From Eledone cirrhosa (lineage: Eukaryota), in NCBI GenBank assembly GCA_964016885.1, contig OZ024740.1, forward strand, positions 304,978,001 to 305,042,000: a stretch of 64,000 nt of DNA, read 5' to 3'. The notes beneath the pieces are model-generated. The model had not been told where the DNA came from and ran no database searches. It saw only the letters and a program-made list of their open reading frames with translations. A program made the translations under genes and the position numbers. Of the stretch, positions 21,675-63,507 are shown piece after piece (within the stretch, counting starts at the first letter, position 1; the number at the start of each line of letters is the position of its first letter).

Positions 21675-22129
21675 AAAGGTAAACAGAAATAACAACACAT
21701 ATGTGTGTGTGTGTGTGTGTAAAATGTAAACAGAAATAACAAATCAAAAGACACAGTTCATTGAAGAAATATATTAGCTTAATGATTGAAATAGCAGGAA
21801 AAGAGTCTTAACATTTTGAACACTAGTCCTTCATCAGAAGATAGAGTTAGAAATAGATGATAAAATAGAAAGATAAAGAGTGAGAAGCAGAAGGAACGGG
21901 GGAGGGAGATAGTAAAAACACACGTGTGTATTCAGTCAGCCATTTTAAAGATATATATGTAGAACCTGAGACCATAGGTAAGCAAGATGCAGCCCCCCTC
22001 CCCTCCCCGGCCTATCTGGGCAGCCAGTAGCCCCATTTCAGTGCTGACTTGGTCTACATAGACCCATCCAACTGTTGCTAGCAGGGAAAGAGAAAGCGGA
22101 CATTAAATGATGATGTTGATGATAATATA

Positions 22130-22583
22130 TCATCAAGAGGGCTGAGGGTGTCTTAGCATCACTCAGCAAGACCTTTGTCAGCCACTCTCCAGCTATCTAT
22201 TTAAGGCTGTACAACAACAACCCTGAGTACCTTTTTGATTTCCATGTGTCTAACATACGTGGACATGTTCACAAAGTCAGAAAACAGCACAGTTCCCATG
22301 ACTTTCGGAAACATTTTTTCACGCTCAGAGTTGCTGAAGCATGGAACAAACTACCTGCATCAGTTGTTAGCTGTCGAGACACTGCATCCTTTAAAACCTC
22401 CATGCTTCCCGAGATTCGCCAACACTACACCTAATGTTCCCCCTCCATACACATACATACATGTATATCATGACTCATACACTGTTCACTTCCCTGACAT
22501 TTGTATATTATTCTATGTACTATACATGCACCTTTGACGAGTTGTAGTGCACCTGAGCACTTTACACAATAATTTCATTATTA
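22130..22583 (+). mobile_element. CR1-group LINE 3' fragment with internal deletion
   Basis: Matches ~27405-27487 joined directly to ~27722-28090. Confidence 0.9.
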
Positions 22584-23234
22584 TCTCCTTATAATATATA
22601 ACCAGCAATTTCTCTGTCTGTCTGTCCGACAGTGGAAACACGTGCGCGCGTGGTTGCTATCTCTCTCTCCAGCTATCCCTCTCTTTTAGTCTGTCTGTTT
22701 CTCTCACTCTTTCTCTTTGTAACACACTAACATTCCTCGCCTCTATCGCTGTGACGATTGGGGAGGAGGAGGAGGAGAGAGTCACTTCGTCACTTCACCT
22801 CTGCCTTTCTTTCTCTCCCCTCTCACTCCCTCATTACGTACAGACATTAGCGCGGTGGATTGGCAGAATCTGTAGAGAGTCGGACACCATGCTTCATAGC
22901 ATGGAGTTACGTCCCTTTACGGTCTGAGTTCAAATACCGCCAAGGTTAACTTTGCCTTTCATCCTCACGGGGTCGATAAAATAAAGTACCAGTAATGTAC
23001 TGGGTAATTGCTGGCCTTGTGCCAAAAGTAGAAACAATTATTAGAAACATTGCTTCATTTTTACATATCTAAGCATTAGTAAAATAACTAATAATTTCAA
23101 AAGTAATTTTTCAATTCCAATTGTTATGAACAGCAAAACATTAATAATAATTTTGTTCTAAGAAATATATATACATTTCTGTGTGTGTAATATATATATA
23201 TACACACAGAAATATATATACATTTCTGTGTGTG

Positions 23235-24641: not shown

Positions 24642-24819
24642 TTATTATTATATGTGTGTGTGTAATTACATTCTATATATATATATTTATATATATATAT
24701 ATATATAATTTTTCGGCTCTGTTGTATTACATTGAGCTATATCCTATACTGTCATTTCTCTTATACGACGAGTGAGTTTAACTCTAACGCACTCAAGTAT
24801 TTTAATCTTATATATATTT

Positions 24820-27800
24820 TTCGGACCCCGCAGAGGCAACCTCATATCATCTGGCCTCTGCTAAAGCTGGGCGCGAAAATCGGATTACCTTCCGAACACG
24901 CCCAGGCCTACCACCCCATGTACATCCAAAGCTACGTGCTGCAGCTTCCTTGAATCGGAACTCAGCACAAGATGAAAGTTTTAGTCTGCGTGATGAAGGG
25001 CAGATCTGGAGGTTTGTCAAGGCTGGTGAAACGTGGAAGAGAGATACCAGCTGGTCTGAGTGTGATCTGCCCACAATGACTGGCAATGTAAAAACTGCTA
25101 CAACTCTGGGAAACTAAACCAGAACAACCTGCCACCCTCTACACACCATCATAAACTGCGAGCAGGGTACAAATTGTTGTCCTTAAATGCTCGCAGTTTA
25201 TGCAACAAGATACATCTGTTCGAATCCTACATCAGAAGCATCGACCCTGACTTCATCACAGTCACGGAAACATGGGCACATTCCTTACTCTGTGATGGGG
25301 TTTCAGTATTACTGGGTACAACCTTTTCCGCAAGGACCTCATTAACCGCCGTGGTGGTGGTGTGATGGTCTACGTTCGTTCAAACTTTTCGGTAATTCCT
25401 TGCGTTGATTTGAACGAATCACAGGAAGAACTTTTTTTCTGTGACATATGTATGACCATGTCAACACTTCTGCTTGGTGTTGTTTATCGCTCCCCAAACT
25501 ACCATCAGGACACACAGCTTTGCGATATCCTCAGAGTTGCTGCCAAGAAAACAGCCACTTATGTGTTTATTGCAGGTGACTTCAATCATCCTGAGATCGA
25601 TTGGGAAACCTTTCGTTGGCCACAAGGTGCAAACGATTTCCTTGAACTAGTGCTGGACTCAAACTGGTCACAAGTAGTCACCTCTCCAACAAGAGGTGAC
25701 AACACTTTGGACCTGATCTTCACCAATACTCCTGAAGTGGTTATCAGTTGTACTACTGAGGAACCTCTAGGCGACTCTGATCATGCTATGATCATTGCCA
25801 ATCTGGCACTTGAGGGCAGCAACAAAAACCAGAGCCATCTCCAATCTGCTTGCTTTGATTGGAAGAGGGCGGATTGGAACTTGTACTGCACTGAGCTACA
25901 GCGCCCAAACTGGCATGAGATGTATAACTCTGGAGATGTGAACACTATACTCCAGAGCATCCTGGACTCAATATGGATAGCGTGTGCAGCATCGGTGCCA
26001 CGGAAGCGGAAAAATAACCACCCCAAAAATGCAATTTGGGAAACTTCAGCGGTCCGACTTGCCAGGAAAGAACGTCGGCACGCTGAACGGGAATATAAAC
26101 TGCATAGATCAGATGCCAACAGAAAAAAGCGGAATAAATCTTCTAACCATCTCAAGCAAGTGACAAAGAAGGCAGTGCTTGAATTTGAACAGTGCATCGC
26201 AACCAATCCCGACAGTAAGGTGTTCTGGAAATATGTTCATTCAAAGCAGAGACCTCACTCTCCAGTTGGTCCTCTTCGCAATCCCCACACAAGCCAGATC
26301 ACTGACGATCCCAAGGAATGCGCAGAACTCATTGCTGAGTGCTATGCAAGTATTTTTACTGTTGAAAACCAGAATGTACCATCTCCACCATCTCTAACAT
26401 CAAATTCCATAACAACTATGGAATTTACACCTGCAATGTTGCGACGTCACCTTAAGAATAAGCGCAACTATGCCTCCCCCGGTCTTGATGGTGTGACATA
26501 CCTGCTTCTCAAACGTGGCGGCTATTTCCTTTTGCGCCAGCTTTCTTTCTTCTTTTAATACTGTCTCAACAATGGTGCTACTCCGGAGCAGTGGAAAACT
26601 GCCAGTGTGATTCCCCTGTTCAAAAAGGGCAACCGCATGTCACCTGTCGACTATCGTCCAGTCAGTCTTACAAGCTGTGTGGCCAAACTGATGGAATCCT
26701 GTGTCAGAGAAACACTTTGGAACTTCTGGAGCTCTCACAGCCTCATCTGGCCCTCACAGTTTGGATTTATCCCTAACTCCAGCTGCTGTGATCAGCTTAT
26801 CGAGTTCCTTGAGGACATCACCCAGATCACTGACAGCGGCTCATGGGTGGATGTTGTTTACCTTGACTTTGCTAAGGCTTTTAATTCTGTGCCACACAAA
26901 AGACTTATGGCAAAACTCTCTGCAATGGGTGTGAGGGATGATCTTTTCGACTGGTTGAAATCCTTCATTCTCAGCCGAAAAGAAGTAGTCACGGTTCTAG
27001 GACAGCATTCTTCACCATATGAGATGTCATCTGGTGTACCACAGGGATCTGTTCTTGGTCCTCTTTTGTTTGTGGCATATATTAATGACATAGATGCCAA
27101 CTTACAGAATGCCACGGTACTGAAATATGCAGATGACATCAAGCTGTACCTTGAAATCAAAAGGACTGATCCTGAAATTTACAACTCTTTTCTACAATCA
27201 GACCTGGACACAATGCAGCAATGGATCACAGACTGGCAACTGAAGCTGGCTGTGGACAAGTGTACCACCATGCATTTTGGAAGGAAAACTCCAGCGTCCA
27301 CATACTCCCTCCACAACACTGATATCAAAAAGTCCTCTTGTGAACGTGACCTGGGCATTACTGTCAGCAACGATTTGTGTTGGACAAAGCATGTCTCTAA
27401 GATTGTCAAGAAGGCCGAGGGTGTCTTGGCATCACTCAGCAAAACCTTTGTTAGCCGCTCTCCAGCCATCTATTTAAAACTGTATACAGCTATGGTACGA
27501 CCACACTTGGAATTCGCATCATCAGTCTGGAACCCCTATCTTGCTCAGAACATTGACCTCCTGGAAACTGTTCAGAGACGTGCAACCAAGCGCATACCCT
27601 CCATCAGACACCTACCATACTCTGAACCCCTTGCTTCCCTGGGCATGGATTCATTGAAGCTCCGACGTCTAGCAATGGACTTGGTGAATACCCACAAAGT
27701 TTTTAACCATCTCGCCAATTGCAACCCTGAGCGCCTCTTTGATCTCCATGTGTCTAACACACGTGGACATGCCTACAAGATCAGAAAACAGCACAGCTCC

Positions 27801-28228
27801 CATGACTTTCGTAGACATTTTTTCACGCTCAGAGTTGCTGAAGCATGGAACAAACTGCCTGCGTCAGTTGTTAGCTGCCGAGACACTGCATCCTTTAAGA
27901 CACTCATGCTTCCCGAAATACGCCAAAACTACACCTGATGTACCCCTTCCATACACATGCACACATGTGTGTATCATGACTCGTGCACTGTTCATTTTAC
28001 TGATGTTTGTGCATTGCCCTATGTACTGTACATGTGACTTTTTTGATGAGTTGTGGTGCACCTGGGCACTGTACACAATATTTCATTATTGTTATTATTA
28101 TTATATCATGACTCATACACTGTTCATTTTCCTGACATTTGTACATTATTCTATGTACTATACATGCACCTTTAATGAGTTGTAGTGCACCTGAGCACTG
28201 TACACAATAATTTCATTATTATTATTAT
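24820..28228 (+). mobile_element. CR1/L2-group LINE, 5'-truncated in ORF1, ORF2 disabled
   Basis: APE endonuclease (SLNARSL, TETW, GDFN, LDLIF, SDH) and RT (YRPVSLTS, YLDFAKAF, GVPQGSVLGP, YADD). Frameshift near 25300 and in-frame TAA at 26556. Duplicated 3'UTR and (ATT)n tail. Confidence 0.95.
25108..27938 (+). pseudogene. ORF2 (APE endonuclease + reverse transcriptase), one frameshift and one nonsense codon
   Basis: ORF track 25174..25365, 25362..26558 and 26607..27938; the last two share a frame. Confidence 0.92.
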
Positions 28229-28293
28229 ATATATAAATATATATATATAGAATGTAATTACACACACACACACACACATAATAATATATATAT

Positions 28294-28888: not shown

Positions 28889-29184
28889 TTAATAGGAAGA
28901 TCTGGAAAGAAATGGTAGTTAGATAAGATCTGAAGATGTTTAGTTTCATAGAAAATATGAGATAGGATCTGGAGATGTGGACATATTCTGTATTGCTAAA
29001 ACATCGATGATATACCTAAAAAAAAGAAACAATCATTTGACTTTTTACAATAATGAACTATATTTTCTGGTACGTAGAATAATATTTTATAAACATGACA
29101 AGTAGCAAACCTTACATTATTCAATGACATTTGTAGCATAGTTAACTAGATAGGGTACACAGTACACAAATAACAAGAGTATAT

Positions 29185-30768
29185 ATATACAGTGAAAAAG
29201 TGTGTATATAACATGAAGTATACACATGTGGAGAGAGATGTATACATACAGTGATAAAGGTGTAGATATAACATGGAGCATACACATGTGGAGAGAGATG
29301 TATATATACAGTAAGGAAGGTGTAGATATAACATGGAGCATACACATGTGGGGAGAGATGTATATATACAGTAAGGAAGGTGTAGGTATAACATGGAGCA
29401 TACACATGTGGGGAGAGATGTATATATACAGTAAGGAAGGTGTAGATATAACATGGAGCATACACATGTGGGGAGAGATGTATATATACAGTAAGGAAGG
29501 TGTAGATATAACATGGAGCATACACATGTGGGGAGAGATGTATATATACAGTGAGGAAGGTGTAGATATAACATGGAGCATACACGTGGAGAGAGATGTA
29601 TATATACAGTGAGGAAGGTGTAGATATAACATGGAGCATACACATGTGGGGAGAGATGTATATATACAGTGAGGAAGGTGTAGATATAACATGGAGCATA
29701 CACATGTGGGGAGAGATGTATATATACAGTGAGGAAGGTGTAGATATAACATGGAGCATACACATGTGGAGAGAGATGTATATATACAGTGAGGAAGGTG
29801 TAGATATAACATGGAGCATACACATGTGGAGAGAGATGTATATATACAGTGAGGAAGGTGTAGATATAACATGGAGCATACACATGTGGGGAGAGATGTA
29901 TATATACAGTGAGGAAGGTGTAGATATAACATGGAGCATACACATGTGGGGAGAGATGTATATATACAGTGAGGAAGGTGTAGATATAACATGGAGCATA
30001 CACATGTGGAGAGAGATGTATATATACAGTGAGGAAGGTGTAGATATAACATGGAGCATACACATGTGGAGAGAGATGTATATATACAGTGAGGAAGGTG
30101 TAGATATAACATGGAGCATACACATGTGGAGAGAGATGTATATATACAGTGAGGAAGGTGTAGATATAACATGGAGCATACACATGTGGAGAGAGATGTA
30201 TATATACAGTGAGGAAGGTGTAGATATAACATGGAGCATACACATGTGGAGAGAGATGTATATATACAGTGAGGAAGGTGTAGATATAACATGGAGCATA
30301 CACATGTGGGGAGATATGTATATATACAGTAAGGAAGGTGTAGATATAACATGGAGCATACACATGTGGAGAGAGATGTATATATACAGTGAGGAAGGTG
30401 TAGATATAACATGGAGCATACACATGTGGGGAGATATGTATATATACAGTGAGGAAGGTGTAGATATAACATGGAGCATACACATGTGGAGAGAGATGTA
30501 TATATACAGTGAGGAAGGTGTAGATATAACATGGAGCATACACATGTGGAGAGAGATGTATATATACAGTGAGGAAGGTGTAGATATAACATGGAGCATA
30601 CACATGTGGAGAGAGATGTATATATACAGTGAGGAAGGTGTAGATATAACATGGAGCATACACATGTGGAGAGAGATGTATATATACAGTGAGGAAGGTG
30701 TAGATATAACATGGAGCATACACATGTGGAGAGAGATGTATATATACAGTGAGGAAGGTGTAGATATA
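29185..30768. repeat. 60-bp minisatellite, ~26 near-identical copies
   Basis: Unit gtgaggaaggtgtagatataacatggagcatacacatgtggagagagatgtatatataca. One unit has a 2-bp deletion near 29585. Confidence 0.98.
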
Positions 30769-31059
30769 TGAGCAAAGGTTCAATATATATGTGGGGTAGG
30801 GTATATATATATTGAAGAAAACGTATACACATGAAGGAGAAGTAGAGACAGGGAAAGGGAGTATACTCCAAGAATGTGGAAAGTATACACATGAAAGGAG
30901 ACAAGCACATGGAGAATTTGTGGAATGTTTCAATAAAAGTATCCATAAAATGCTGGACTTAAAAAAAATATCCGTTGCTCTGAGGTAGAAATAATAGAAA
31001 AAAAAAAAAAAGTCTCAATAATTAATTAACTATAAAGCAACTAGGAAAGAAATGACGTA

Positions 31060-35232: not shown

Positions 35233-37030
35233 CATCATCATCATCACTGTTTTATGTCCGTTCTTCCACGCTAGCATGGGTTAGACAGGCTGTCCTGTTG
35301 TGGGCAGTGTCCAGTTGGCTTACCTTGTCTTGCTCATACAGGAACTGATTTTGGCTTGATATCTACAGCTGGATGCCCTTCCTAACACCAACCTCATTTA
35401 CAGTGAGTGCTGGGTGCTTTTTTCCGTGGCGCCTACACGTCCACTTTACAGTGTGGGCTGGGTGCTTTTTTGCCGTGGCACCTCCACGACCACTTTGCAG
35501 TGGGAGGGTGTGGGGGCATATTGTCTATATGCTTCAGCTTCGGCTTGTACCTGTGGGGGGTCGGGTCTTCTGTATTACTGCGTGACGCCAGAGGTTACGG
35601 TTGTGTGTCATCGCCTTTGAGAGGTGTAATTGGGTAAGGTCGGCTTTTATCACCTCATCCCAGGTCTTCTTGGGTCTCCCCACTCCGCGGTTTCTATCGA
35701 CTTCTAGTGCTCTGCACCTTTTTAATGCAGCTGTCATCCTTCATATGCATCACATGTCCATACCAACGCAACCGCCTCTCCTGCACACAGCATTTGATTC
35801 CTCTTATGCTCAGTCTCTCTCTCAATTCATTTATGCTTTGTCGGTCGCGTATATTACTATTACACATCCATCGGAACATGCAGGCTTCGTTTCTTTCTAA
35901 TCTATGCAAGTTTTCCACAGACAGCGCCCAGGTCTCACTACCATGTAACATTGCTGTTCGTATACACGCATCATACAGTCTGCCTTTCATTTTGAGGGGA
36001 AAACCTTTTGCAGCTAGCAGTGGCAGTAGCTCCCTGAACTTCTTCCATCCCGTTCTTATCCTAGTTATTGTACTTTCCGAACACCCACCTCCATGCCAAT
36101 TCGGTCACCTAGGTAGCAGAAGCTGTCTACTGTTTCTACAGAGCCCTCCCAGAGTTTGGTGGTACTTGTTTCCTGTGGCTGTTTGCTGCTTGCTGTCCCA
36201 GCACAGCTGCTACATGTGAAGCCTATATTCTGAGTGAAGCTTCCTGAGATCCGGCTACATCTCTTGTGTACCCATTGTTTGCATTTGGGGCAGAGAATGG
36301 AGTTCCTACCTACACCTTTCCTACATACTGAGCAAGGCCATTTCCCTGAGGGGATCTGGGTTCTGTTTTCTCGTCTACTTACAAGGACCTTAGTCTTTGT
36401 CAGGTTGACTTTGAGACCCTTTCTTTCTAGTCGTTGCTTCCAAGTTTGGAATTTCTTCTCTAGTTCTACCATAGATTCAGCTATAAGTGTGAGGTCATCT
36501 GCATACATGAGTTCCCATGGGCATCCGGTCTTAAACTCCTCCGTTATTGCCTGCAGAACTATGATAAACAGGAGAGAGATAAGAACAGTGCCCGGGTGGA
36601 CACCGACCTGTACGCTAAATTCCTCGCTATACTCATTGCTAATCCTAACTTTGCTGACTGCTCCCCTGTACATGGCTTGTACAGCTTTCAGAAGCCATTC
36701 ATCTACTCCTAGTTTTCTAAGAGCCCACCAGATTATAGCACGGGGAACTCTGTCAAAGGCTTTCTCGAGATCGACGAATGCCAGGTAGAGTAGCTTACTT
36801 TTAGCTAGGTTCTTTTCCTGTAACTGCCTCACAAAGAAGAGGGCATCAGTGGTGCCTCTTCCTGGCACAAACCCAAATTGCATCTCATCTAGTTTCACCC
36901 GGTCCCTAATCAGCTGTACTATAACTCTTTCTGTTACTTTCATGACCTGGTCCATCAGCTTTATACCTCTATAGTTTCCTCTATCTAGTGCATCACCTTT
37001 ACCTTTGTAGCAGTTGACAATGATGCTACT
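35232..37030 (-). mobile_element. RTE LINE, 5'-truncated and frameshifted, long-3'UTR type
   Basis: RT (FVDLEKAFDRVPR, YADD), PHD insert and WYGHVM in ORFs 36065..36955 and 35694..35990; (GAT)n tail. Confidence 0.95.
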
Positions 37031-37349
37031 GCACTATATATATACCACCCACCACCCCTCACTCTCAAGTGTGAACCTAATACTAACACTTTGTACTGCA
37101 CTCTTCGTTATTGTTTTTGTTTTCTGTTTTATATACACACACATATATATATATATATATATGTGTGTATATAAAACAGATATACGTATATATACATACA
37201 TCATCATCGTTTAATGTCCATCTTCCACGCTAGCATGGGTTTAGATGGGAATTGTCCCACTTGAACCAAGATTGGTCGTCTCGCTCGTGTAGGGCTGTAT
37301 GGCAGATTTTCTACGGCTGGATGCCCTTTCTAACACCAACAAGAATTAC

Positions 37350-37971: not shown

Positions 37972-38070
37972 GTCCCACCCTTGCAAGCAGGGAAAAAGCG
38001 GACGTAAAATAAAATGAAATGAAATGACACATATATATATATATACACACACACATACATACACACACAC

Positions 38071-38109
<39 letters not shown>

Positions 38110-38125
38110 TATATATATATACTCA
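37350..38125. repeat. Compound (TA)n(CA)n microsatellite
   Basis: Seen directly. Contains a ~45-bp RTE terminal fragment at 37972-38010. Confidence 0.95.
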
Positions 38126-38127
38126 TA

Positions 38128-39630
38128 AATTGCTACAAAGGTAAAGGGGATGCTTTGGAGAGGAGCAATTATAGGGGTATAAAACTGATAGATCAGGTTA
38201 TGAAAGTGGCAGAAAGGATTTTAGCACAACTAATTAGAGAAAGGGTCAAACTAGATGAGATGCAGTTTGGTTTTGTGCCTGGGAAGAGTACAACAGATGC
38301 CCTCTTCTTGGTGAGACAATTGCAAGAGAGGTTCTTAGAGAAGAATAAGCCACTATACTTAGCCTTTGTTGACCTAGAGAAGGCTTTTGATAGGGTACCC
38401 CGATCTGTCATCTGCTGGTCCCTAAGGAAGCTAGGTGTTGAGGAATGGCTTGTGAGGACAGCGCAAACTTTGTACAGAAGTACTCTCAGTAAAGTCAGGG
38501 TAGGAATGGAGTTTAGTGAGGAATTCCAGATACAAGTAGGAGTACATCAGGGTTCGGTCCTCAGCCCGCTCTTGTTCATTATAGTCCTCCAAGCCATAAC
38601 AAAGGAGTTTAAGACTGGCTGTCCATGGGAACTTCTCTATGCTGACGATCTGGTTCTTATAGCAGAATCAGTAGAGGAGCTAGAGAATAAATTCTGGCTA
38701 TGGAAACAGCAGTTGGAAGCAAGAGGACTGAGAGTGAACCTAGCTAAGACAAAAGTGTTGATGAGTAGAAAAGAGGACAAAACGCTGATTCCGTTAGGGA
38801 AATGGCCATGTTCGATATGCAGAAAAGGAACTGGCATAAATTCTATAAAATGCACACAATGCAGATCCTGGGTACACAAGAGATGTAGCGGGATAGCAGG
38901 CAAACTAACAGGTAGGGAGAAATATGTATGCAGTAGATGTACAGGGAAATTAGACAGTAGAAGTCGCATTGATAGACACATTTTTCAAATGCAGGAGGGC
39001 GCTATAGAAGTGGTGGATAGCTTCCGGTACCTAGGAGATCAGACTAGCATGGGAGGAGGGTGTTCCGAGGCCATAGTATCTAGAATAAGGACGGGTTTGA
39101 AAAAGTTTAGGGAGCTGCTTTCTCTGTTGACGAAGAAGGGTTTCTCCCTGCGTACGAAAGGCCGGTTGTATGATGCCTGTGTGAGGAGCGCGATGCTGCA
39201 TGGTAGTGAGACATGGGCAGCAACTGCAGAGGATATGCGACGGCTGGAGAGAAATGAGGCAAGCATGCTCCGTTGGATGTGCAGTGTAAATGTGCGTGAA
39301 CGACCCAGCATAAATGTGTTGAGAGAGAAACTGTGTCTGAGAGGGATAGAATGTAGTGTACGGGAGAGGAGACTGAGGTGGTATGGACATGTGATGCGCA
39401 TGGAGGATGACCGATGGGTGAAGAAGTGCCAGGAATTGCCATTTGAAGGAAGACGTGGTAGAGGTAGACCACCTAAAACATGGGCGGAGGTGGTGAGAAC
39501 AGACCTCAGATCATTGAAGCTCACGGTGGAGTTGACGAAGGACCGTGACGAGTGGAGAGATGCTGTGCTGAATAAGACCCGTCCCACCCTTGCAAGCAGG
39601 GAAAAGCGGACGTAAAATGATGATGATGAT
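38128..39630 (+). mobile_element. RTE LINE (no-UTR family), 5'-truncated, remaining frame open
   Basis: 486-aa open frame with RT motifs, PHD finger and C-terminus [12 protein letters not shown], directly followed by (GAT)n. Confidence 0.97.
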
Positions 39631-39868
39631 ATATATAAATGAAAATAGAGAAATTAATGTGAGCAAGAAGCCAACAGTAATTCATATATATAAGTGACTA
39701 TAAAGTCAAGATGGAAAATATTTAACATAAGATATGGGAAAAATAATTCAATCTCAATTCAAAAAAAGTCAAGACAGAAATTTTATCCACAGATTTTGTG
39801 TAATCCAGGGAAAAAAACAATAGAGTCTTAACTCAGAATAAAATTAAGGGTAAATACTTATCCTTCAA

Positions 39869-41233
39869 TTTTGGTTTTGTGCCTGGGAAGAGTACAACAG
39901 ATGCCTTCTTCTTGGTGAGACAATTGCAAGAGAGGTTCTTAGAGAAGAATAAGCCACTATACTTAACCTTTGTTGACCTAGAGAAGGCCTTTGATAGGGT
40001 ACCCCGATCTGTCATCTGCTGGTCCCTAAGGAAGCTAGGTGTTGAGGAATGGCTTGTGAGGACAGTGCAAACTTTGTACAGAGGTACTCTCAGTAAAGTC
40101 AGGGTAGGAATGGAGTTTAGTGAGGAATTCCAGATAGAAGTAGGAGTACATCAGGGTTCGGTCCTCAGCCCGCTCTTGTTCATTATAGTCCTCCAAGCCA
40201 TAACAAAGGAGTTTAAAACTGGCTGTCCATGGGAACTTCTCTATGCTGACGATCTGGTTCTTATAGCAGAATCAGTAGAGGAGCTAGAGAATAAATTCTG
40301 GCTATGGAAACAGCAGTTGGAAGCAAGAGGACTGAGAGTGAACCTAGCTAAGACAAAAGTGTTGATGAGTAGAAAAGAGGACAAAACGCTGATTCCGTCA
40401 GGGAAATGGCCATGTTCGATATGCAGAAAAGGAACTGGCATAAATTCTATAAAATGCACACAATGCAGATCTTGGGTACACAAGAGATGTAGCGGGATAG
40501 CAGGCAAACTAACAGGTAGGGAGAAATATGTATGCAGTAGATGTACAGGGAAATTAGACAGTAGAAGTCGCATTGATAGACACATTTTTCAAATGCAGGA
40601 GGGCGCTATAGAAGTGGTGGATAGCTTCCGGTACCTAGGAGATCAGACTAGCATGGGAGGAGGGTGTTCCGAGGCCATAGTATCTAGAATAAGGACGGGT
40701 TTGAAAAAGTTTACGGAGCTGCTTTCTCTGTTGACAAAGAAGGGTTTCTCCCTGCGTACAAAAGGCCGGTTGTATGATGCCTGTGTGAGGAGCGCGATGC
40801 TGCATGGTAGTGAGACATGGGCAGCAACTGCAGAGGATATGCGACGGCTGGAGAGAAATGAGGCAAGCATGCTCCGTTGGATGTGCAGTGTAAATGTGCG
40901 TGAACGACCCAGCATAAATGTGTTGAGAGAGAAACTGTGTCTGAGAGGGATAGAATGTAGTGTACGGGAGAGGAGACTGAGGTGGTATGGACATGTGATG
41001 CGCATGGAGGATGACCGATGGGTGAAAAAGTGCCAGGAAATACCAGTTGAAGGAAGACGTGGTAGAGGTAGACCACGAAAAACATGGGCGGAGGTGGTGA
41101 GAACAGACCTCAGATCATTGAAGCTCACGGTGGAGATGACGAAGGACCGTGACGAGTGGAGAGATGCTGTGCTGAATAAGACCCGTCCCACCCTTGCAAG
41201 CAGGGAAAAGCGGACGTAAAATGATGATGATGA
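39869..41233 (+). mobile_element. RTE LINE, near-identical second copy
   Basis: 446-aa open frame with few substitutions relative to 38155..39615. Confidence 0.97.
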
Positions 41234-45969: not shown

Positions 45970-47605
45970 ATCATCATCATCATCGTTTAACGTCCATGTT
46001 CCACGCTTGCATAGGTTTGGATGGGAGTTTTCCCACTTGAGGCAAGAGTGGTTGTCTTGCTCGCATAGGACTGTCTGGCGGGTTTTCTACAGCTGGATGC
46101 CCTTCCTAACACCAACCGCATTTACAGTGTGGGACTGGGAGGTTTTTACCATGTTACCTACACGGCCACATTACAGCGTGGACTGTGTGTTTTTTTGTCG
46201 TGACGCCTACACGATCTCATTTGTTTCGGCCTGGATGTTGTGGCACCAACATAACTTTACATTGAAAGGGGCGGTCTGGATGGGTGGGGGTGGTGGGACG
46301 GGGGTGTATTTTGTTAGAGGTGCCTACTGACTGTAGTAGGTTTTACTTTGTATTTAGGTAAGGCGGGTCTTCTCTATTACTGAGTACCGCCAAAGATCTC
46401 GGTCCAGTGACATTGTCTTGGAGAGGTGTAAGTGTGTGGGGTCGGAATTTATCAGGTCGTCCCAGGTTTTTCTGGGTCTGCCTACTCCGTGGCTACCGTC
46501 TATTTTTATCGCCTTGCACTTTTTAATACAGCTCTCGTCTTTCATGCGCATCACGTGACCATACCAACGTAGCCTTCTCTCGAGTAAACAACATCTGATC
46601 CCTCTTATTTCTAATTTTTCCCTTAGTTCATTTATGCTTTGCCGTTCACGTATATTTCTATTACACATCCAGCGGAGCATGCAAGCTTCGTTCCTCTCTA
46701 GTCTGCGTATATCCTCTGCACACAATGGCCAGGTCTCACTGCCATGCAACATTGCTGTTCGTATGCAGGCATCATACAACCTGCCTTTCATTTTTAGGGA
46801 GAACCCTTTAGCGGCTAATAGTGGTATAAGCTCTCTGAACTTTTTCCATCCAGTTCTGACTCTAGCTACTGTACTTTCAGAGCACCCTCCCCCACTGCTG
46901 ATTTTGTCACCCAGGTAACGGAAGCTGTCCACTATTTCTATAGAACCCTCTGCGCAATTGAAAGAGCTAGTATTTTGTGGGCACTTGCTGCTACTTATTG
47001 CACCAGAGCACCGGCCACATGTAAAATCTATGTTCTTAGTTAGCTTACCTGTGATCCCACTACATCTTTTATGCACCCATACTTTGCATTTGGGACATAA
47101 AATGGAGTTTCTACCTACGCCTTTCCTACACACTGAGCATGACCATTTCCCGGAAGAGACCGGCACCTTATTTTCTTTCCTACAAACTAGAACTTTAGTC
47201 TTAGCCAGGTTGATTTTAAGGCCTTTTGATTCTAGGCCGTGCTTCCATGTTTGGAATTTCTTCTCTAGCTCGGCCATTGATTCAGCTATGAGCGTTAGAT
47301 CATCTGCGTATAGGAGTTCCCATGGGCAGCCGGTCTTGAACTCCACTGTTATAGCTTGATGGGCAATCATAAATAGTAGGGGGCTAAGAACAGAGCCCTG
47401 ATGAACACCAACTTTTACGCTAAACTCTTCACTATATTCGTTGTTAATTCTAACCTTGCTGACTGTTTCTTTATACATGGTTTGTATAGCTCTCACAAGC
47501 CATTCATCAACACCTAGTTTTCTAAGAGCCCACCAGATAATGGAACGGGGGACTCTGTCGAAGGCTTTCTCCAAGTCGACAAAAGCTAAGTATAGGGGTT
47601 TACTT
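45970..47605 (-). mobile_element. RTE LINE, 5'-truncated, open 406-aa frame, long 3'UTR
   Basis: ORF 46354..47574 has RT and PHD; the ~380-bp 3'UTR ends in (GAT)n. Confidence 0.96.
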
Positions 47606-47613
47606 ATATATAC

Positions 47614-47644
<31 letters not shown>

Positions 47645-47900
47645 TATCATTGTACGACAACTACAGGAGAAGTACCTAGCTAAAAGTAAACCCCTATACT
47701 TAGCTTTTGTCGACTTGGAGAAAGCCTTCGACAGAGTCCCCCGTTCCATTATCTGGTGGGCTCTTAGAAAACTAGGTGTTGATGAATGGCTTGTGAGAGC
47801 TATACAAACCATGTATAAAGAAACAGTCAGCAAGGTTATATATATATATATATATTATATATATATATTATATATTATATATATATTATATATATATAAG

Positions 47901-48159: not shown

Positions 48160-48877
48160 TCATTATCATTTTACGTCCGCTTTTTCTTGCTTGCAAGGGT
48201 TGGATGGGTCCTATTTAGCACAGCATCTCTCCTCTTGTCACGGTCCTTCGCCATCTCCTTGGTAAGTATCAGCGATTTGAGGTCTGCTCTCACAACCTCT
48301 GCCCATGTTGTAAGTGGTCTACCACTACTGCATCTTCCTTCTACTGGGATTTCTTGGTACTTCTTTACCCAGCGATCATTCTCCATGCGCATCCCATATC
48401 CATACCATCTCTGTCTTCTTTCCTGCACACCACAACTTATCCCTCTTATACCCAGTTTCTTTCTCAACTCGTCTATGCTGGGTCATTCACGCACATTAAC
48501 ATTGCACATCCAACGGAGCATACTTGCTTCATTTCTCTCAAGCCATCGCATATCCTCTGCAGTTGCTGCCCATGTCTCACTACCATGCAGCATCGCGCAT
48601 CTCACACAGGCATCATATAACCATCCTTTTGTACGCAGGGAGAAACCCTTCTTTATCAACAAAAGAAGCAGCTCCCTAAACTTCTTCCAACCCATCCTTA
48701 TTCTAGATACTATGGCCTGGGACACCCCCGCTCCCATGCTAATCTGATCACCTAGGTACCGGAAGCTATCAACCACTTCTATAGAACCCACCTGCATTGG
48801 AAAAACGTGTCTATCACTGCGATTACTACTGCCAACTTTCCCTGTACATCTACTGCATCTGTAGTTTTCCCTACCTG

Positions 48878-48878
<1 letters not shown>
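48158..48878 (-). mobile_element. RTE LINE 3' portion, no-UTR family
   Basis: ORFs 48483..49016 and 48171..48467 match the C-terminal half of 38155..39615. Confidence 0.93.
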
Positions 48879-48913
<35 letters not shown>

Positions 48914-49981
48914 GGGATAACAGGTTATCGTTATAGGCAGTCCACTTAGATGTAGTCCAGTTAGAGTACTCCGTGTAGTAGATAGTATTAACGTATGGCT
49001 TAGTTTGACTCAACAAGACGTTTCCATAGTGATGCTGCGAGTTCGCGGTGATATCTATGTAGTTTATACTTGGAATATTTAAACCACCGTGATTCGAACC
49101 AACATCACTTAGCTTTTAACATATGAAATTCGCATTCTCCCACAGCCTACTACAGAACCATAATCTTCTATAAGCACCTTCTAGCCTCCTTAATTCTATA
49201 CTACTGGGATGTGGCAGTGATGCCTACAACTATCTTATCAGCCCATAAATCAATCCCATCTTTGCTGTTGTTCACTCCTTCGGACCAAACAATTATATCT
49301 CACATTAGCACTCATGATCTCTAACAGATGAACTTAATTCTAAGTACATTATCTTATTACTCCTACACTCCTTGAAATCTTACTTTCCTCTTATTATTCT
49401 TATTATTATTATGAACATCTCAATGTATCCCTAATATTATTCATCATGTTCTCTATATCTACCATGCATATTTTACTATTTTATTACCTTTATTGTTTCT
49501 ATTATTGTTGTTATTACTGTCTTATTTATACACGATTTGTTATTGATGCTGTGAAAACTAAACCCCCATGATTCGAACTAACAATCCCTACCTTTAGTAT
49601 AGGCCACTTAAATAACGAATCTACAACTCCACTTATCACCACATAAAAACTATCATCCTCACTAAATTAATAAAACGAAAATGTTTATCTGTCAAACAAT
49701 AAGTAAATCTTCGGTTCATTGCCAGCATACCTACAACATAGCAGATACCTCATAAATCCTGTCTTCAAGTACATTTTAGTGGTTACTGTTATCTAGTCGC
49801 CACCTTAACACTATATCTAATGTACTCTATAGCAGTTTTCACATGTCAATTTCATACATCTGTATCATATCAGTTTGTTTAACATGCTAGATTCATCATT
49901 ATACTCTATTTCTTACTTATATTGATGATGTTATTTTAACTATTTGCTATCTAGTTATTTTATTTTATTATTGATATTATT

Positions 49982-51658: not shown

Positions 51659-52560
51659 AATGAATAATAACAGGTAGACATCATAAAAAGGTAGTTTATT
51701 CCGTGTGCTTACAAGTGTTTCCACGGTGGTACTGCAGCCTAGTTCCGCTACGTGCAAATTCACAAGTATTTGCAGAACTCGAATATCCAATGCTGTGACC
51801 ACTGTTTCCTCAGAGCAGAATGGTAAATATACAATGTAAAAACCCTTAAGTGGGGTTGTTGGGGAAGATAGAGTGGAACAGGAAGAGAGAAAAGTAGGGA
51901 AGATGGAGAGAGAAGGAAAGATATGCAGGGGTTGGAGAAGTAGGAGAGAGTGGCTTGTAGATATCTTAATCAAAATGTTATGGTAGGGGTTTTATTAGTT
52001 ACTTTTGGAGAGATGCGTAGATAGTTGAGGTCGGAATTATTTATTGCCCCAGAGGTCAAGTTCATAGATGTTGAGAGGGAGGTAGGTCAAAGGTGAGAGA
52101 GAGAGAGTGTAATGGATGTAGAGAGAGATATATAGGTAGAGAGGGGACAGATAAAGTATATGTGGTGAGTGAACTTTTGGTTTTGTAGTAGTAATCTAGG
52201 AATTGTACTGAGTTACCATGTATAGTGATAAGCAGTGTATTGTCTTGTAGTGTGGGGGAGAAGAGAAGGTTGTTAGCTAGAAAGTGGTGTTGTAGTTACG
52301 GGTTCGAATGTTAAGTTATTTTATAGTGAGAGAATTTAGCTTTTAGTTTGTGGTTGCAGTATAATGATCGTTCAATTCTATCGTTAAGTAGTTTGTTTTT
52401 GGATTTTAGTATGTAAAATAGCTCAAGGTTACATAACCTGCAGTACTTCAAACCACTCCGTAGCGGAACTAGGCTGCAGTACCACCGTGGAAACACTTGT
52501 AAGCACACGGAATAAACTACCTTTTTATGATGTCTACCTGTTATTATTCATTCTTTATAT
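51650..52560 (-). mobile_element. 5'-truncated Penelope-like element with inverted pLTR
   Basis: Endonuclease-end peptide [37 protein letters not shown] (52311-52456). Perfect ~102-bp inverted repeat 51651-51752 / 52459-52560. Hammerhead in the 3' end. Confidence 0.85.
51706..51817 (-). ncRNA. Hammerhead ribozyme with an ~85-nt stem II region
   Basis: tgct-CTGAGGA-aacagtggt...accaccgtg-GAAA-CACTTGTA-agca. Confidence 0.75.
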
Positions 52561-52699
52561 ACACTCCGGAATACTGAAGGATCAGGAACTAAGTTTCTTG
52601 AACAATTCTTCCATAACTCGTAGAGTAACCTCTTACCGTACGTCAACCATATCCAGTGTAGTAATTAACCATCACTGCATCTTGGATAATCCTATACCT

Positions 52700-55270
<2,571 letters not shown>

Positions 55271-55355
55271 ACTTTGAATAACTTTGAAATGTTTTGGCCA
55301 GTATTGGCCCAGGCCATGTCTAACTTAATAGCACCACCTGGCGAAGTCTTTCAAT

Positions 55356-58300
55356 TCAGGATTTGGGCACCATGGCCCATTCGAGAAGAGAATTACTGTT
55401 TGCGGAGACATATCCGGGTGTGGGTGGTTTGTCCGGGATTACTTGGAGGAATTTGTCCAAAGACTTCTTGAATTTTGTGTGGTCAGTTTCTGTTTTGACG
55501 TGTCCTGGTGTGATGTTGAAGAGAGCAGGGCCGATTGAGGTGAAATAATTGTGCCGTATTGTTGTTATGAGTTGCGATTTAGATTTTTGAATGGGACGGA
55601 TAGCACGGGGCCCAAGCCTTGGGTGTATCTTGAAGGCGATGCCAACATCATTTGGGCAGTGATGATGGAACATTTTCCACATCATGCAGATAATATAACG
55701 CTCACGGCGACGTTGGAGTGAGTAAAGTTTCAGGTTTTCCAATCGACCCCAGTAGTCAAGGTCTGACATGCCATCTATCTTTTTCGTGATTGCCCTTTGA
55801 GGAGCTTCAAGTTTCATGATACTTTGTTTCGTGTGGGGAGACCACAGTGGACAACAGTATTCAAGGTGTGGTCGGGCGAAAGTAGAGAAGAGAAGGATAA
55901 TGGTGCGGGAATCTCTCGACTGGAAGGTTCTGAGGATCCAGGAACACATTCTGCGGGCCATGTCAACTTTGCTGCTTATATGCGTGGTCCAGCTTATGTT
56001 GCTGTCCACGGTTACTCCCAAGTCTCTGATGTTGTTAGATGCCACGAGAGTTTCCCCGGAGGGAAGGGAGTACGGGAGTTTCAGAGCATCCTCTTTTCCA
56101 AAGTGGATCAGTTCGAATTTGTCTTCGTTCAGTAACATGTTGTTCTTTTCTGCCCATTGGGTAACAGCCAGTAGGTCTGACTGAAGGCTTATCCGGTCAT
56201 CCACGCCATTGATGACCTTTTGGAGCTTGGAATCATCAGCGAAAATTTTAATGTTGCTGTGTTTGATGATGTCAGTGATGTCATTAATATAGATGATGAA
56301 GAGAAGTGGGCCCAACACAGTGCCTTGTGGGACTCCACTACTGACTTTGGCTGGGCTTGATTTGACTCCCTCAACTACAACATGTTGGGTTCTGTTTGAC
56401 AGGAAGCTCTTGATCCACTGCAGCAGCTTTCCAGTGACACCAATATTGGACAGCTTTCTCAGTAGAATGTTATGATCAACCCTGTCAAAGGCCTTGCTGA
56501 AATCAAGGTAGATAACATCAGTGTTGGAACCCTCTCCCAAGGCTCTCAAAATGTCATCAAAGTGATGCAGTAGTTGCGTCAGGCAATCCCTTCCATTACG
56601 GAATCCATGCTGGTTGGAGTTCAGCATATTGTTACTCTCAAGGAAGTGGGTCATTCGCGATCTCACCACTCGCTCAAATACCTTAATGATATGAGAGGTG
56701 AGTGAGATTGGACGGTAATTCACGGCAAGGGATTTGTTTCCCTTTTTGAAAACTGGGACAACAGACTGGGATAGAAGGTTTTCTGGCACATATCCAGCAT
56801 CCAGTGAGTTCCGCCACAGATTGGCAAGAGGAGAAGCAAGTTGGTGTTGACACGCCTTCAAGACACAAGCAGGGAACCTATCGGGACCTACTGCTGAATT
56901 ATGCTTGATTTCCTTTATTGCCGCCAAGACATCAGGGGCGCCAAACGTTATGTCCGATAAGGTGTAATGGGGAGTAACATCGCCGATACAGCCCAGATCG
57001 GCCATATCAGGACTGCTGAAAACAGAGCAGTATTGTTTCTGCAGTATCTCACCCATGGTTTTAGCATTGTCTTGAAGAGTGCCATTTTCATCAATTAGAG
57101 GGCCAACAGTAGAGCCAGTGATTTTGTGTTTTTTTGCAAATGAAAAGAACACTTTGGGATTGAGTTTGATCTTCTCAATGGCCCAGGCCTCTTCAGCTCT
57201 TCTCTGATTGTTGATGAGGGACATTATGTTGTTTTGGAGGTTATGTTTTTTAATCTCTAGTGATGAAATGGCAGTCAAGTTGATGTGTTGCTGCTGACAG
57301 TATTTCAGATTGTTGATTTTTTTGTTCGTTCTCTTAATTTTTCTGATGAGCGTTTTTCTATTTCTAGGGATTCTGCTCTTAGATTTGTTTATAGTTCTTA
57401 ATGGGGTGTGTTTAGCACATATGTTTGTAACAGTGTCCACAAATGTCTGCCAGGATTTTTTGATGTTAGTGGGTGTATGAGTGTGCGTGAAGGACCAGTC
57501 GACATGTGCAAGATCATGACTGATCGCTTCCCAGTTTGCATTGTGGAAATCCATAGCGTCAAACGGATGGACAGGAGAAATGACATTGGGTTTGTATATT
57601 GGACGGTGGAATCTCAGATCACAGAGAACCATGTCATGATCAGAGAGTAGAGTTTTCTCCACTGCAATATTGTGGATATTGTCAGTGTGATTGCTGAAAA
57701 TTAAGTCTAGGACGTTTTTGTGGCACCTCGTTGGTTCGAGCACTAGTTGGGATAGGAAGAAATCATCCATGAAGTCAAGAAGCGATTCCACAGCTTCCCT
57801 GTCAGAGGTTGAGGCAGAAGAACCTGGTGGCAGGGTGTTTGTGGACCAGTCAACTCCGGGGAGGTTGAAGTCCCCCATCATTAAGATGTTGTCAGGGTGA
57901 CACTCTTGGATGAAACACTTTATGCTGTTGAGGCATTCCTTGAAGCATGGTACAGGCGTTTGGGGTGGCCTATAGAGCCCAACTACTAATAGGTTGTTGG
58001 TTTGACTGAATACAGTGACTGCCTCACAGTATCCATTAGTGAATATGTTCATAGCCTCTGTTGAGAAAGAATTATGGACATAAATGGCAGTTCCGCCCTT
58101 TCTTCTGCCAGCGCGATCAGCACGGATGGCTTTGAAATTTTTCACTTTCACCTCGGCTTCCAAGTGGAGGTTACTGAGATGGGTTTCAGTGAGGACGAAG
58201 AAAGGGATGTGGTTTGGATGGACATCAATCCAGTCCTCCAGGAATTTGATCTTCCATTTTTGAGTATTGGTGGAAGGGCTGATGCCTTGGGCGTTAAGCA

Positions 58301-58493
58301 AAAATGTAGAGGCGAGAGTGGATGGTTTTAATTGTTTTGGTGTGTTGTTAATTTGTTTGTTTGTTAATGGCAGCAATGGGAGTTTGTGCAGTGGGGTGAT
58401 AGTGGAGGGTGGTGCTGGGTGATAGCTCGAATGTTTTTTTCCAGTTCTTTTGCCAGATTCATTATGGCTAAAAAAGAGGAAGAAGTTTCCTGT
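55356..58493 (-). CDS. LINE ORF2: APE endonuclease + reverse transcriptase (start undefined; frame open from 58493)
   Basis: LNAQG, LTETHL, GDFN, LDLIF, SDH; [49 protein letters not shown]. Confidence 0.95.
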
Positions 58494-59524
58494 TTAGAAG
58501 ACTGTTGGTGACTGTGGTAGTGGTTATTTTTATGTAGGTTATGGTTTTTGTTTTTGCTTTTATTTTTAATTTTATTTTCATTTATCCGACGGGTCCCCGG
58601 GAGATGGGTAAAGGGACAATCCCGGTCTAAACACAATCTGTCTCGCAGGGAAAAACGGCAGATTTGTGGATTCCTTGTTTGAGTTATTGGTGGTTGTGTT
58701 GGTGTTAAATTAGAGTATGTATTATGGTGGTGGCTGTTTGTGGGGATAGATCGTTTTGTCCTAGGTAAATGGGTGAATTTGCAGCCACTATCCGTACATA
58801 TTCTATAGCGTAGAGAGTAGCGGCAAATGATGGGGTTTCGAGTGGGTGGGTATGTGGGTGTGGGTGTTGTGAGAGGTGTAGATGATGGTTTGGGTAGGAT
58901 TTGACGACCTTTGTGGACTGTGGGAGGGAGAGTTCTTGTTCTGGTATTAGAAGGTAAATTCCTTGACATAGCAGTAGACAAAAATGTTGTAGTAGTAGTA
59001 GTAGGCAGAGATGTTGGCAGTGGTGATGATTGGACTGCTGGGCCAGAGAAAGGATGTGGCGTTTCATGCTGTGAGACAGAGGCTACTGGGGGGTCAATAG
59101 TTTCATTTAGTAGATCGGCCATTGTTGATGAATCAAGGAGTGGTTCACACTGTTGTTGTTGTTGTTGCTGTTGTTGATGTTGTTGTTGTAGCTGTTGTTG
59201 ATGTTGTTGTTGTAGCTGTTGTTGTTGTTGCTGTTGTAGCTGCTGTTGTTGTTGCTGCTGCTGCTGGACAGCATTCGAAGAGAAAACACACCGTAGTTTA
59301 TCCAAATGTTTATTGATTAATTTAAAAGCAATTTCGATTTGCTTTAATTTATTTTGAATCTGTTGTTCAGATCGAGTTTTCAAAAATTGAACTGTACGTT
59401 TAGCAATGTCGTTCAGAGATGAAGCATCTATATTTTCTGTTTGGGAAAGGCAATGCCATGTGTTTATTAGAATGTCGATTTCATTATCAGACCAGTTCTG
59501 TTTGGATTTTTGCTGGTTAGCCAT
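58364..59524 (-). CDS. LINE ORF1: Myb/SANT-like N-terminus, polyQ, two CCCH zinc fingers
   Basis: WSDNEIDILINTW..IAKR..RSEQQIQNKLK, a Q-rich tract, and C-x8-C-x4-C-x3-H at 58769-58825 and 58604-58660. Confidence 0.88.
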   Translation of the reverse strand: MANQQKSKQNWSDNEIDILINTWHCLSQTENIDASSLNDIAKRTVQFLKTRSEQQIQNKLKQIEIAFKLINKHLDKLRCVFSSNAVQQQQQQQQQLQQQQQQQLQQQHQQQLQQQHQQQQQQQQQCEPLLDSSTMADLLNETIDPPVASVSQHETPHPFSGPAVQSSPLPTSLPTTTTTTFLSTAMSRNLPSNTRTRTLPPTVHKGRQILPKPSSTPLTTPTPTYPPTRNPIICRYSLRYRICTDSGCKFTHLPRTKRSIPTNSHHHNTYSNLTPTQPPITQTRNPQICRFSLRDRLCLDRDCPFTHLPGTRRINENKIKNKSKNKNHNLHKNNHYHSHQQSSKQETSSSFLAIMNLAKELEKNIRAITQHHPPLSPHCTNSHCCH

Positions 59525-60031
59525 TCTAGTTTTGAGTGTGTGTGTGTTTTAGTTAAGTATTTCAATATATATATATTTTTTTTTTAAATTTATTTTTGAT
59601 TTATTTTTGTTTTTTGTTTTTCTTGTGTGTGAGTGAGAAGCGTATATATATAAATATGAGTATATATATATATATATATATGTATATTCTGGTTATTTGA
59701 AATTAATTAAGTTAATGAAAAGACGAAAGTATATAATAATAATTTGTAGTTAAAGGAAAATGTACTCACAAGTTCGTGTGTGTGTGTTTTAGTTAAGTAT
59801 TTCAATATATATATATATTTTTTTTAATTTATTTTTGATTTATTTTTGTTTTTTGTTTTTCTTGTGTGTGAGTGAGAAGCGTATATATATAAATATGAGT
59901 ATATATATATATATATATGTATATTCTGGTTATTTGAAATTAATTAAGTTAATGAAAAGACGAAAGTATATAATAATAATTTGTAGTTAAAGGAAAATGT
60001 ACTCAGAAGTTCGAAAACACGTGGTTTCGAA

Positions 60032-63362
<3,331 letters not shown>

Positions 63363-63507
63363 GTTGAATAAATGAACAGAGAACAAAAAACAGAGGGGCA
63401 GTACAAATGATATGGTTTTTAGTTTCATGCTTGAGAGTGGAGGGTGATACATATATATATGACCATCCCCAAATATAACAATATATATATAACGCCCACA
63501 GGATACT

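Follow-up and report, generated by a model that had tools for sequence, protein, structure and literature searches.

Programmed -1 ribosomal frameshifting in retroviruses and coronaviruses takes place on a heptamer X_XXY_YYZ in the upstream frame, with the polymerase ORF placed in the -1 frame and lacking a start of its own, as set out in the relevant passages of PMC5009743. The same passages name G_GGA_AAC among the most shift-prone heptamers for mammalian ribosomes, give a spacing of 5-9 nt to the stimulator, or 12-15 nt for a minority of sites, and mention HeT-A, TART and L1 as non-LTR elements; the corresponding passages of PMC7175516 concern LTR elements only. Among LINEs with an APE-type endonuclease, Dictyostelium TRE5-A and TRE3-A are stated to require a -1 frameshift for ORF2 (PMC5911963, sections on these elements). 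In Paramecium, ORF2 of LINE groups 1 and 2 is attributed to +1 frameshifting or reinitiation and that of group 3 to readthrough, all inferred from consensus sequences, and no heptamer is described in the passages concerned (PMC5405496). Another virus-like recoding is represented by the 2A-like StopGo sequences of CR1/L2-group APE-type LINEs (PMC3708506, in part). For the second ORF of bicistronic LINE RNAs, passages of PMC3708506, PMC1965478 and PMC5009743 describe the mode of translation as unclear, with reinitiation as the usual model. The available text of a 2026 survey of the CR1 group (PMC13343379) contains no mention of frameshifting, ORF overlap, start codons or readthrough.

No report of -1 frameshifting at animal CR1-group LINE junctions was found in the literature searched, most subscription journals lying outside it. 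Early papers on mosquito CR1-type elements reportedly discussed overlapping ORFs. In the reports found, -1 frameshifting is established for viruses and LTR elements and is stated to operate in two LINEs of amoebae.

The window analysed is a stretch of 64,000 nucleotides of the Eledone cirrhosa genome (assembly GCA_964016885.1, contig OZ024740.1, positions 304,978,001-305,042,000 of the forward strand). Two LINEs in it, elements A and B, contain canonical slippery heptamers in the ORF1 frame (Table 1). Element A resembles the retroviral and coronaviral systems in having X_XXY_YYZ in the upstream frame and the polymerase ORF in the -1 frame without its own start; an excess of the structural protein, typical of those systems, is predicted for element A. 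It differs from them in being a non-LTR element, in the stop placed directly after the heptamer and in the absence of a stimulator at 5-9 nt. TRE5-A and TRE3-A, for which a review states a need of a -1 shift, differ in being amoebal and tRNA-gene-targeting. Recoding of ORF2 is predicted for both element A and the Paramecium LINEs, but in the latter the shift would be +1, not -1, and they belong to a separate ciliate clade. A bicistronic LINE RNA is shared with SART1 and mammalian L1, and downstream RNA structure with SART1; unlike SART1, with its UAAUG, and L1, element A has no overlapping stop-start, and an AUG is absent from the window copy and from three of the four sequencing runs compared, with none usable in the distant relative L001. 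The 2A-like StopGo sequences act within one frame at the ORF2 N-terminus and are absent from element A. Motifs of this kind (NPGP-type) were seen before the endonuclease in the single-ORF LINEs L037 and L042, and also in L041, L051, L055, L087 and L097.

Pfam analysis of ORF2 of element A showed the presence of PF14529 (E 1e-13), PF03372 and PF00078 (E 9.9e-37), while no RNase H family was reported by Pfam for this ORF. An ORF2 with APE endonuclease and reverse transcriptase is a feature of CR1-group LINEs (PMC13343379, available text), and ORF1 type does not define a LINE lineage (PMC4120745, in the part concerned). A PDB sequence search gave matches only to reverse transcriptases of R2, L1 and group II introns. 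Element A is described here as a CR1-group-like LINE, a label taken from its architecture and motifs, the tree rows being unnamed. The window copy is dead, since ORF2 is interrupted by a frame break near 25300 and an in-frame stop.

The frame upstream of the junction was originally proposed to be the C-terminus of ORF1, and this is what it proved to be: it is closely similar to the C-terminus of P0001, a full-length ORF1 homolog of 405 residues with a Cys-rich N-terminus (Table 1), and is continued in loose contig ends upstream of 24817, which contain the motif KPRLIRLSF common to P0001. Given initially as 24821-25117, this frame belongs to the element, but the element starts at 24817, not at 24821; contig depth begins in the bin 24814-24837, and loose ends before 24817 are present in three of the four runs. 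A PHD-bearing ORF1 is one of the types known from CR1/L2 lineages. Among the Atlas neighbours of P0001 (0.90-0.92), PHD families occur on 11-21% of members, and Pfam itself finds no PHD.

Element A is bracketed by a 56-nt inverted repeat (24642-24697 and 28226-28281; 91% complementary, partly simple sequence), and its 3' flank reappears in inverted orientation about 120 nt before its 5' end. Two short 3'-end copies of the family are also present in the window, at 2099-2454 and 22126-22600 (85-90% identity).

Table 1. Coordinates of elements A and B and of their junction features in the window.
Feature	Position	Strand	Remark
Element A, 5'-truncated LINE copy, ORF1 tail to (ATT)n tail	24817-28228	+	3' limit approximate
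ORF1 C-terminal 99 codons, ending ...TLGN-stop	24818-25117	+	63% identity to P0001 C-terminus
ORF1/ORF2 overlap, ORF2 (-1) frame open from 25066	25066-25117	+	
Slippery heptamer G_GGA_AAC, predicted -1 shift site	25108-25114	+	heptamer plus stop at 1286-1295 in L001
ORF1 stop TAA directly 3' of heptamer	25115-25117	+	
CUG in ORF2 frame, possible start under reinitiation; endonuclease Asn 19 codons downstream	25129-25131	+	
In-frame CUG, 10 codons before endonuclease Asn; AUG in dominant subfamily of run X6	25156-25158	+	
Hairpin with perfect 15-bp stem (25150-25164 with 25188-25202)	25150-25202	+	predicted
ORF2 APE endonuclease and linker, frame break near 25300	25168-26555	+	Pfam match in 25296-26555
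ORF2 reverse transcriptase part, after in-frame stop 26556-26558	26559-27938	+	Pfam match 26559-27935
3' UTR, tandem duplication of about 130 nt, each unit ending in (ATT)n	27939-28228	+	
Element B ORF1, Myb-like and CCCH-type	58364-59548	-	weak Pfam matches below cut-off
Element B, heptamer U_UUU_UUA (ORF1 frame; ORF1 stop 34 codons downstream)	58469-58475	-	
Element B, second heptamer A_AAA_AAC (ORF1 frame; ORF1 stop 22 codons downstream)	58433-58439	-	
Element B ORF2 frame, 1045 codons, -1 to ORF1	55356-58493	-	first Met codon 148, inside endonuclease

At the junction of element A, positions 25100-25117 (+) read ACA ACT CTG GGA AAC TAA, and the zero frame is open over 24806-25117. The -1 frame opens after TGA 25063-25065, stays open over 25066-25365 without Met, and reads ...GKLNQNNLPPSTHHHKLRAGYKLLSLNARSLCNK into the endonuclease with the motif LNARSLCNK. 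The original prediction is borne out here in three respects: G_GGA_AAC stands directly before the upstream stop, the ORF2 frame of the window copy has no AUG before the endonuclease, and a -1 slip would lead straight into the latter. The combination of GGGAAAC and a stop occurs once in the whole window, both strands scanned. The probability of a canonical heptamer arising by chance in the 15 in-frame overlap positions is 0.04 by the background rate and 0.026 by shuffling, and about 0.003 at one given position; since the heptamer taken alone is only mildly unlikely (P 0.03-0.04), outside evidence was needed. The ATG at 25076 was rejected as a start, being specific to this copy (A at 25078 in four of four runs) and lying in the ORF1 frame, outside the ORF2 frame.

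Contigs from four runs (X1, X5, X6 and X7, representing four organism codes and four studies) were compared over 24790-25480. Only two indels are listed in this interval: each of the four runs has contigs with an additional letter behind 25300, and one run lacks 3 nt at 25423. The ORF1/ORF2 junction has no listed indel in any of the four. As all four runs have the extra letter behind 25300, the frame break there is specific to the window copy. The heptamer is bridged by X5-12 (25025-25387, seven other letters, one gap) and X5-11 (one gap), and without gaps by X6-21, X6-22 and X1-5; X6-20, X6-19 and X1-7 contain 6-11 gaps, positions not given. No substitution in 25108-25117 is present among the 40 rows listed (107 further rows exist). 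In run X6, a -1-frame stop at 25087-25089 shortens the overlap, and the possible shift window is reduced to 25 nt, ending at the heptamer. The -1 offset, common to the four runs, is a feature of the family and not a mutation of the copy; the single continuous ORF that the original prediction had weighed against itself is very improbable for the family.

The only locus found with an ORF1 alignment is the metagenome locus L001, the endonuclease of which is 54% identical to that of element A. Its ORF1 ends with CAG GGA AAC TAG, that is, with G_GGA_AAC and a stop as in element A, and its ORF2 frame, likewise -1, becomes open only 6 nt upstream of the heptamer. At the level of sequence, the heptamer-stop arrangement is conserved in this distant relative. 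Scans of viral contigs gave no usable locus.

ORF1 homologs were searched for among proteins, with 15 matches; P0004, P0005, P0007, P0008 and P0011-P0014 (short multi-stretch matches) were left out, and P0010 is a repeat. The count of ORF1 ends omits P0009 and P0023, which leave the homology before the C-terminal domain, the fragment P0017, and P0016 and P0018, duplicates of P0003 and P0015, respectively. Among the 10 distinct homologs with a native C-terminus, four end with GN-stop (P0001, P0002, P0021 and L001), their tails being otherwise unrelated; three have GN at 4, 12 or 15 residues before the C-terminus (P0006, P0019 and P0020); and three end near NF, KN or NL (P0003, P0015 and P0022), which, on the protein only, is compatible with other heptamers. 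Two ORF1 homologs are named Octopus vulgaris by the source. In the short relative P0024, EKL stands in place of the GKL encoded by the -1 frame at the heptamer, and the intact relative P0025 (55%), available as protein only, is called from a Met 49 codons before the endonuclease Asn.

To place these junctions among other LINE families, a DNA pattern for the endonuclease start was used, which gave 25 loci in genome contigs, with L013 as a chance match; the content was mostly eukaryotic LINE contigs inside prokaryotic bins. Pfam searches of those genomes and of one phylum added 70 loci of the 121 matches listed, and 8 more. The resulting 88 endonuclease 5' ends form 56 families at 70% identity, of which 29, with the upstream frame open for at least 70 codons, were scored; the 27 unscored families include L002 and L007, the latter having U_UUU_UUA. 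Except for the two window elements and L001, the junctions were selected by endonuclease alone. The bins G001-G005, G010, G012 and G013 each contain several to dozens of eukaryotic LINE contigs as host contamination; G012 has 31 endonuclease matches and G013 has 39.

The 29 families are represented by 18 with a -1 overlap, nine with an in-frame stop and two with a +1 offset. Of the 18 -1-overlap families, 11 have a canonical heptamer that falls inside the overlap and reads in the ORF1 frame (P about 2e-11), with 1.0 expected by the ORF-body rate (59/20762 positions) and 0.9 by shuffles, the control proposed at the outset. The proportion is 9/16 without element A and L001, and 7/11 for families without AUG; in seven of the 11 families with a heptamer, 0-1 codons separate it from the stop. 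Four different heptamers occur among the surveyed junctions, and in one family U_UUA_AAC-UAG is kept in 11 of 13 copies. Because the surveyed families are partly related, they were collapsed to lineages by ORF1 type and an endonuclease tree, with deep branches unresolved and five families omitted as too short. The heptamer is then present in six of 12 lineages against 1.25 expected (P 3.5e-4), and in five of 11 (P 2.6e-3) when the focal lineage is left aside.

Canonical heptamers are absent from L027, L028, L063, L073, L077, L080 and L097. The near-canonical U_UUU_UUG and G_GAU_UUU of L028 and L063 were scored as misses, and L077 (resembling bacterial exonuclease III), L080 and L097 were retained as misses. 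An in-frame AUG precedes the endonuclease in four of the 11 heptamer families (L020, L031, L069 and L074). L031, L040, L069 and L073 are long-branched and may lie outside the CR1 group.

In nine families, a single stop separates ORF1 from ORF2, the two lie in the same frame, and the endonuclease is not preceded by an AUG. The stop is UGA-CU(A/C) in eight of these (L004, L006, L015, L019, L026, L043, L105 and L106; also seen in L029 and L047) and UAG-GAC in L017; six of the nine form one supported clade. UGA-CU is a readthrough context, and the nine families are candidates for stop readthrough. Given these in-frame stops, no single mechanism covers all the families; recoding in one form or another is common at the surveyed junctions, but the -1 type is not universal. 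The clade-wide recoding first suggested therefore stands in so far as heptamers are enriched in unrelated families, but not as a single mode, given the in-frame stops and +1 offsets beside the -1 overlaps.

The second LINE of the window, element B, had been credited with the same signature. It is the same in kind, but G_GGA_AAC is absent before the stop of element B, which has other heptamers farther upstream (Table 1). LINEs with a CCCH-type ORF1 (element B, 58493-58364 (-), L028, L074 and L002) contain a slippery site 34-117 codons before the ORF1 stop, often at F-L/F-F and followed by a helical tail; a fusion made there would omit the ORF1 tail. Fragments of another LINE type, with reverse transcriptase and a Cys-rich insert, were found at 36065-37033 (-), 38023-40400 (+), 46354-47646 (-) and 48483-49115 (-); by their motifs they are RTE-like. 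The long open frames 29117-31014, 52388-55471 and 59980-63371 were rejected as genes, a 60-nt minisatellite and (AT)n arrays being their source.

The RNA downstream of the heptamer of element A is predicted to form a perfect 15-bp stem, the longest in the element (the next has 10 bp), located 35 nt downstream of the heptamer, 32 nt past the stop and 18 nt past CUG 25129; the folding z is -5.2 for 25115-25210. At the usual spacing of a stimulator, nothing significant was found in 25119-25180 (z -0.47). Substitutions at 25154 and 25194 keep the stem pairing as G-U, and the X6-dominant substitutions at 25156 and 25160 break stem pairs, with no compensating change among the rows listed. The 15-bp stem is absent from L001, where a modest hairpin is present (z -2.3). 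No general downstream structure was detected at 14 surveyed sites, the mean z of the next 90 nt being -0.74, and only element A falls below -2. Pairing of the stem loop with 25119-25149 as a pseudoknot was rejected, because 149 of 1000 shuffles were as good. In L007 and L020, a hairpin of 8-9 bp is located 10-11 nt after U_UUU_UUA, with a common GCACUC arm and differing partners, and is possibly a conserved stimulator in that lineage.

The junction of element A is probably a programmed -1 ribosomal frameshift site, at which tandem slippage on G_GGA_AAC would produce an ORF1p-ORF2p fusion. In favour of this reading are the offset common to the family, the retention of heptamer and stop in L001, the recurrent GN ends of ORF1 homologs, the excess of heptamers in the survey and the shift-prone nature of G_GGA_AAC. 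Against it count the AUG of run X6, a stem that lies beyond the described stimulator spacings and is not conserved, the seven -1-overlap families that have no canonical heptamer, the AUG accompanying the heptamer in four others, and the sequences of P0024 and P0025. For the majority of ribosomes, translation would end at UAA with the release of ORF1p; in a minority, tRNA-Gly and tRNA-Asn on GGA AAC would re-pair to GGG AAA, with CUA as the next codon, and the fusion made by the slipped ribosomes would read ...T-L-G-N-L-N-Q-N-N.... Slippage would set a high ORF1p:ORF2p ratio, similar to retroviral Gag:Gag-Pol. The preferred guess for the source of the pause is slow decoding of the adjacent stop, with the stem 35 nt away as a weaker candidate. 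Because 35 nt corresponds to one canonical spacer plus one ribosome footprint, queueing at the heptamer is conceivable; speculatively, a ribosome held at the stem would queue the next one on the heptamer.

Termination-reinitiation, in which ribosomes would restart at CUG 25129 or at codon 25156 after the ORF1 UAA and synthesize a separate ORF2p, a mode shown for SART1 and proposed for L1, is the main rival; it is unlikely but has several points in its favour. At both in-frame CUGs, position -3 is A. In run X6, A makes up 86% of the depth at 25156 (231158/267392; 32 contigs), by which CTG becomes an in-frame ATG; the A is 0 in X1, X5 and X7, and apparently the same codon is TTG in a loose end from one X5 form. 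An AUG in the consensus, which the original prediction had named as evidence against itself, is thus found in the dominant subfamily of one of the four runs and is absent from the other three, and for this subfamily reinitiation, or both reinitiation and frameshifting, may apply. The same subfamily also has the changes at 25156 and 25160 that break the 15-bp stem, a coincidence observed in one case. A strong downstream stem is required by SART1 (PMC3708506), and L1 ORF2 tolerates the loss of its AUG (PMC1965478), according to the passages of both papers on these elements; in a variant of the explanation, the stem 18 nt past CUG 25129 could stall the scanning subunit.

Reinitiation, however, leaves unexplained the conservation of G_GGA_AAC-stop in L001 and the enrichment of heptamers in unrelated families. 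The -1 frame of L001 contains no CUG, GUG, UUG or ACG before the endonuclease, and the only possible starts in its ORF2 frame are AGG, AAG and an AUG, the last of these two codons upstream of the conserved Asn. In the APE fold, a start at this AUG would cut the first endonuclease strand. The overlapping stop-start UAAUG is absent from both junctions, the stop context being UAAAC in element A and UAGAC in L001, and the Leu-to-Met change at 25156 is also an ordinary substitution in a fused linker.

It is quite improbable that the Gly-Asn end of ORF1 reflects a protein constraint or an inherited relic, with ORF2p obtained from spliced or internally initiated RNA or through polymerase slippage. 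This would agree with L073, which has GN-stop encoded by the non-slippery GGC AAU, and with the partial relatedness of the surveyed families, but the single codon choice that is slippery is the one found, preceded by G, in both close DNA sequences, and other lineages use three other heptamers encoding different residues. A run of three A is short for polymerase slippage, which counts against that route. Finally, an offset arisen by mutation of the dead window copy, in a family with one continuous ORF, has hardly any probability left despite the two other ORF2 breaks in this copy and the assembly of L002, in which ORF1 and ORF2 share a frame through a U7 run, being close to refuted by the contigs of four runs, where the 25300 break is an indel in all four and the junction has none, and opposed by P0001 and P0002, which stop at the same GN, and by L001, with the same offset.

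If programmed -1 frameshifting takes place at this junction, ORF2p would be a fusion carrying ORF1p, which would change the view of particle assembly and set the stoichiometry of the two proteins, and annotations that start ORF2 at the first internal Met would be wrong. The sites of this kind would also constitute a large added family of frameshift sites of cellular ribosomes, some of them without the usual stimulator. The conserved seven-letter site makes the translation of LINE ORF2 directly testable.
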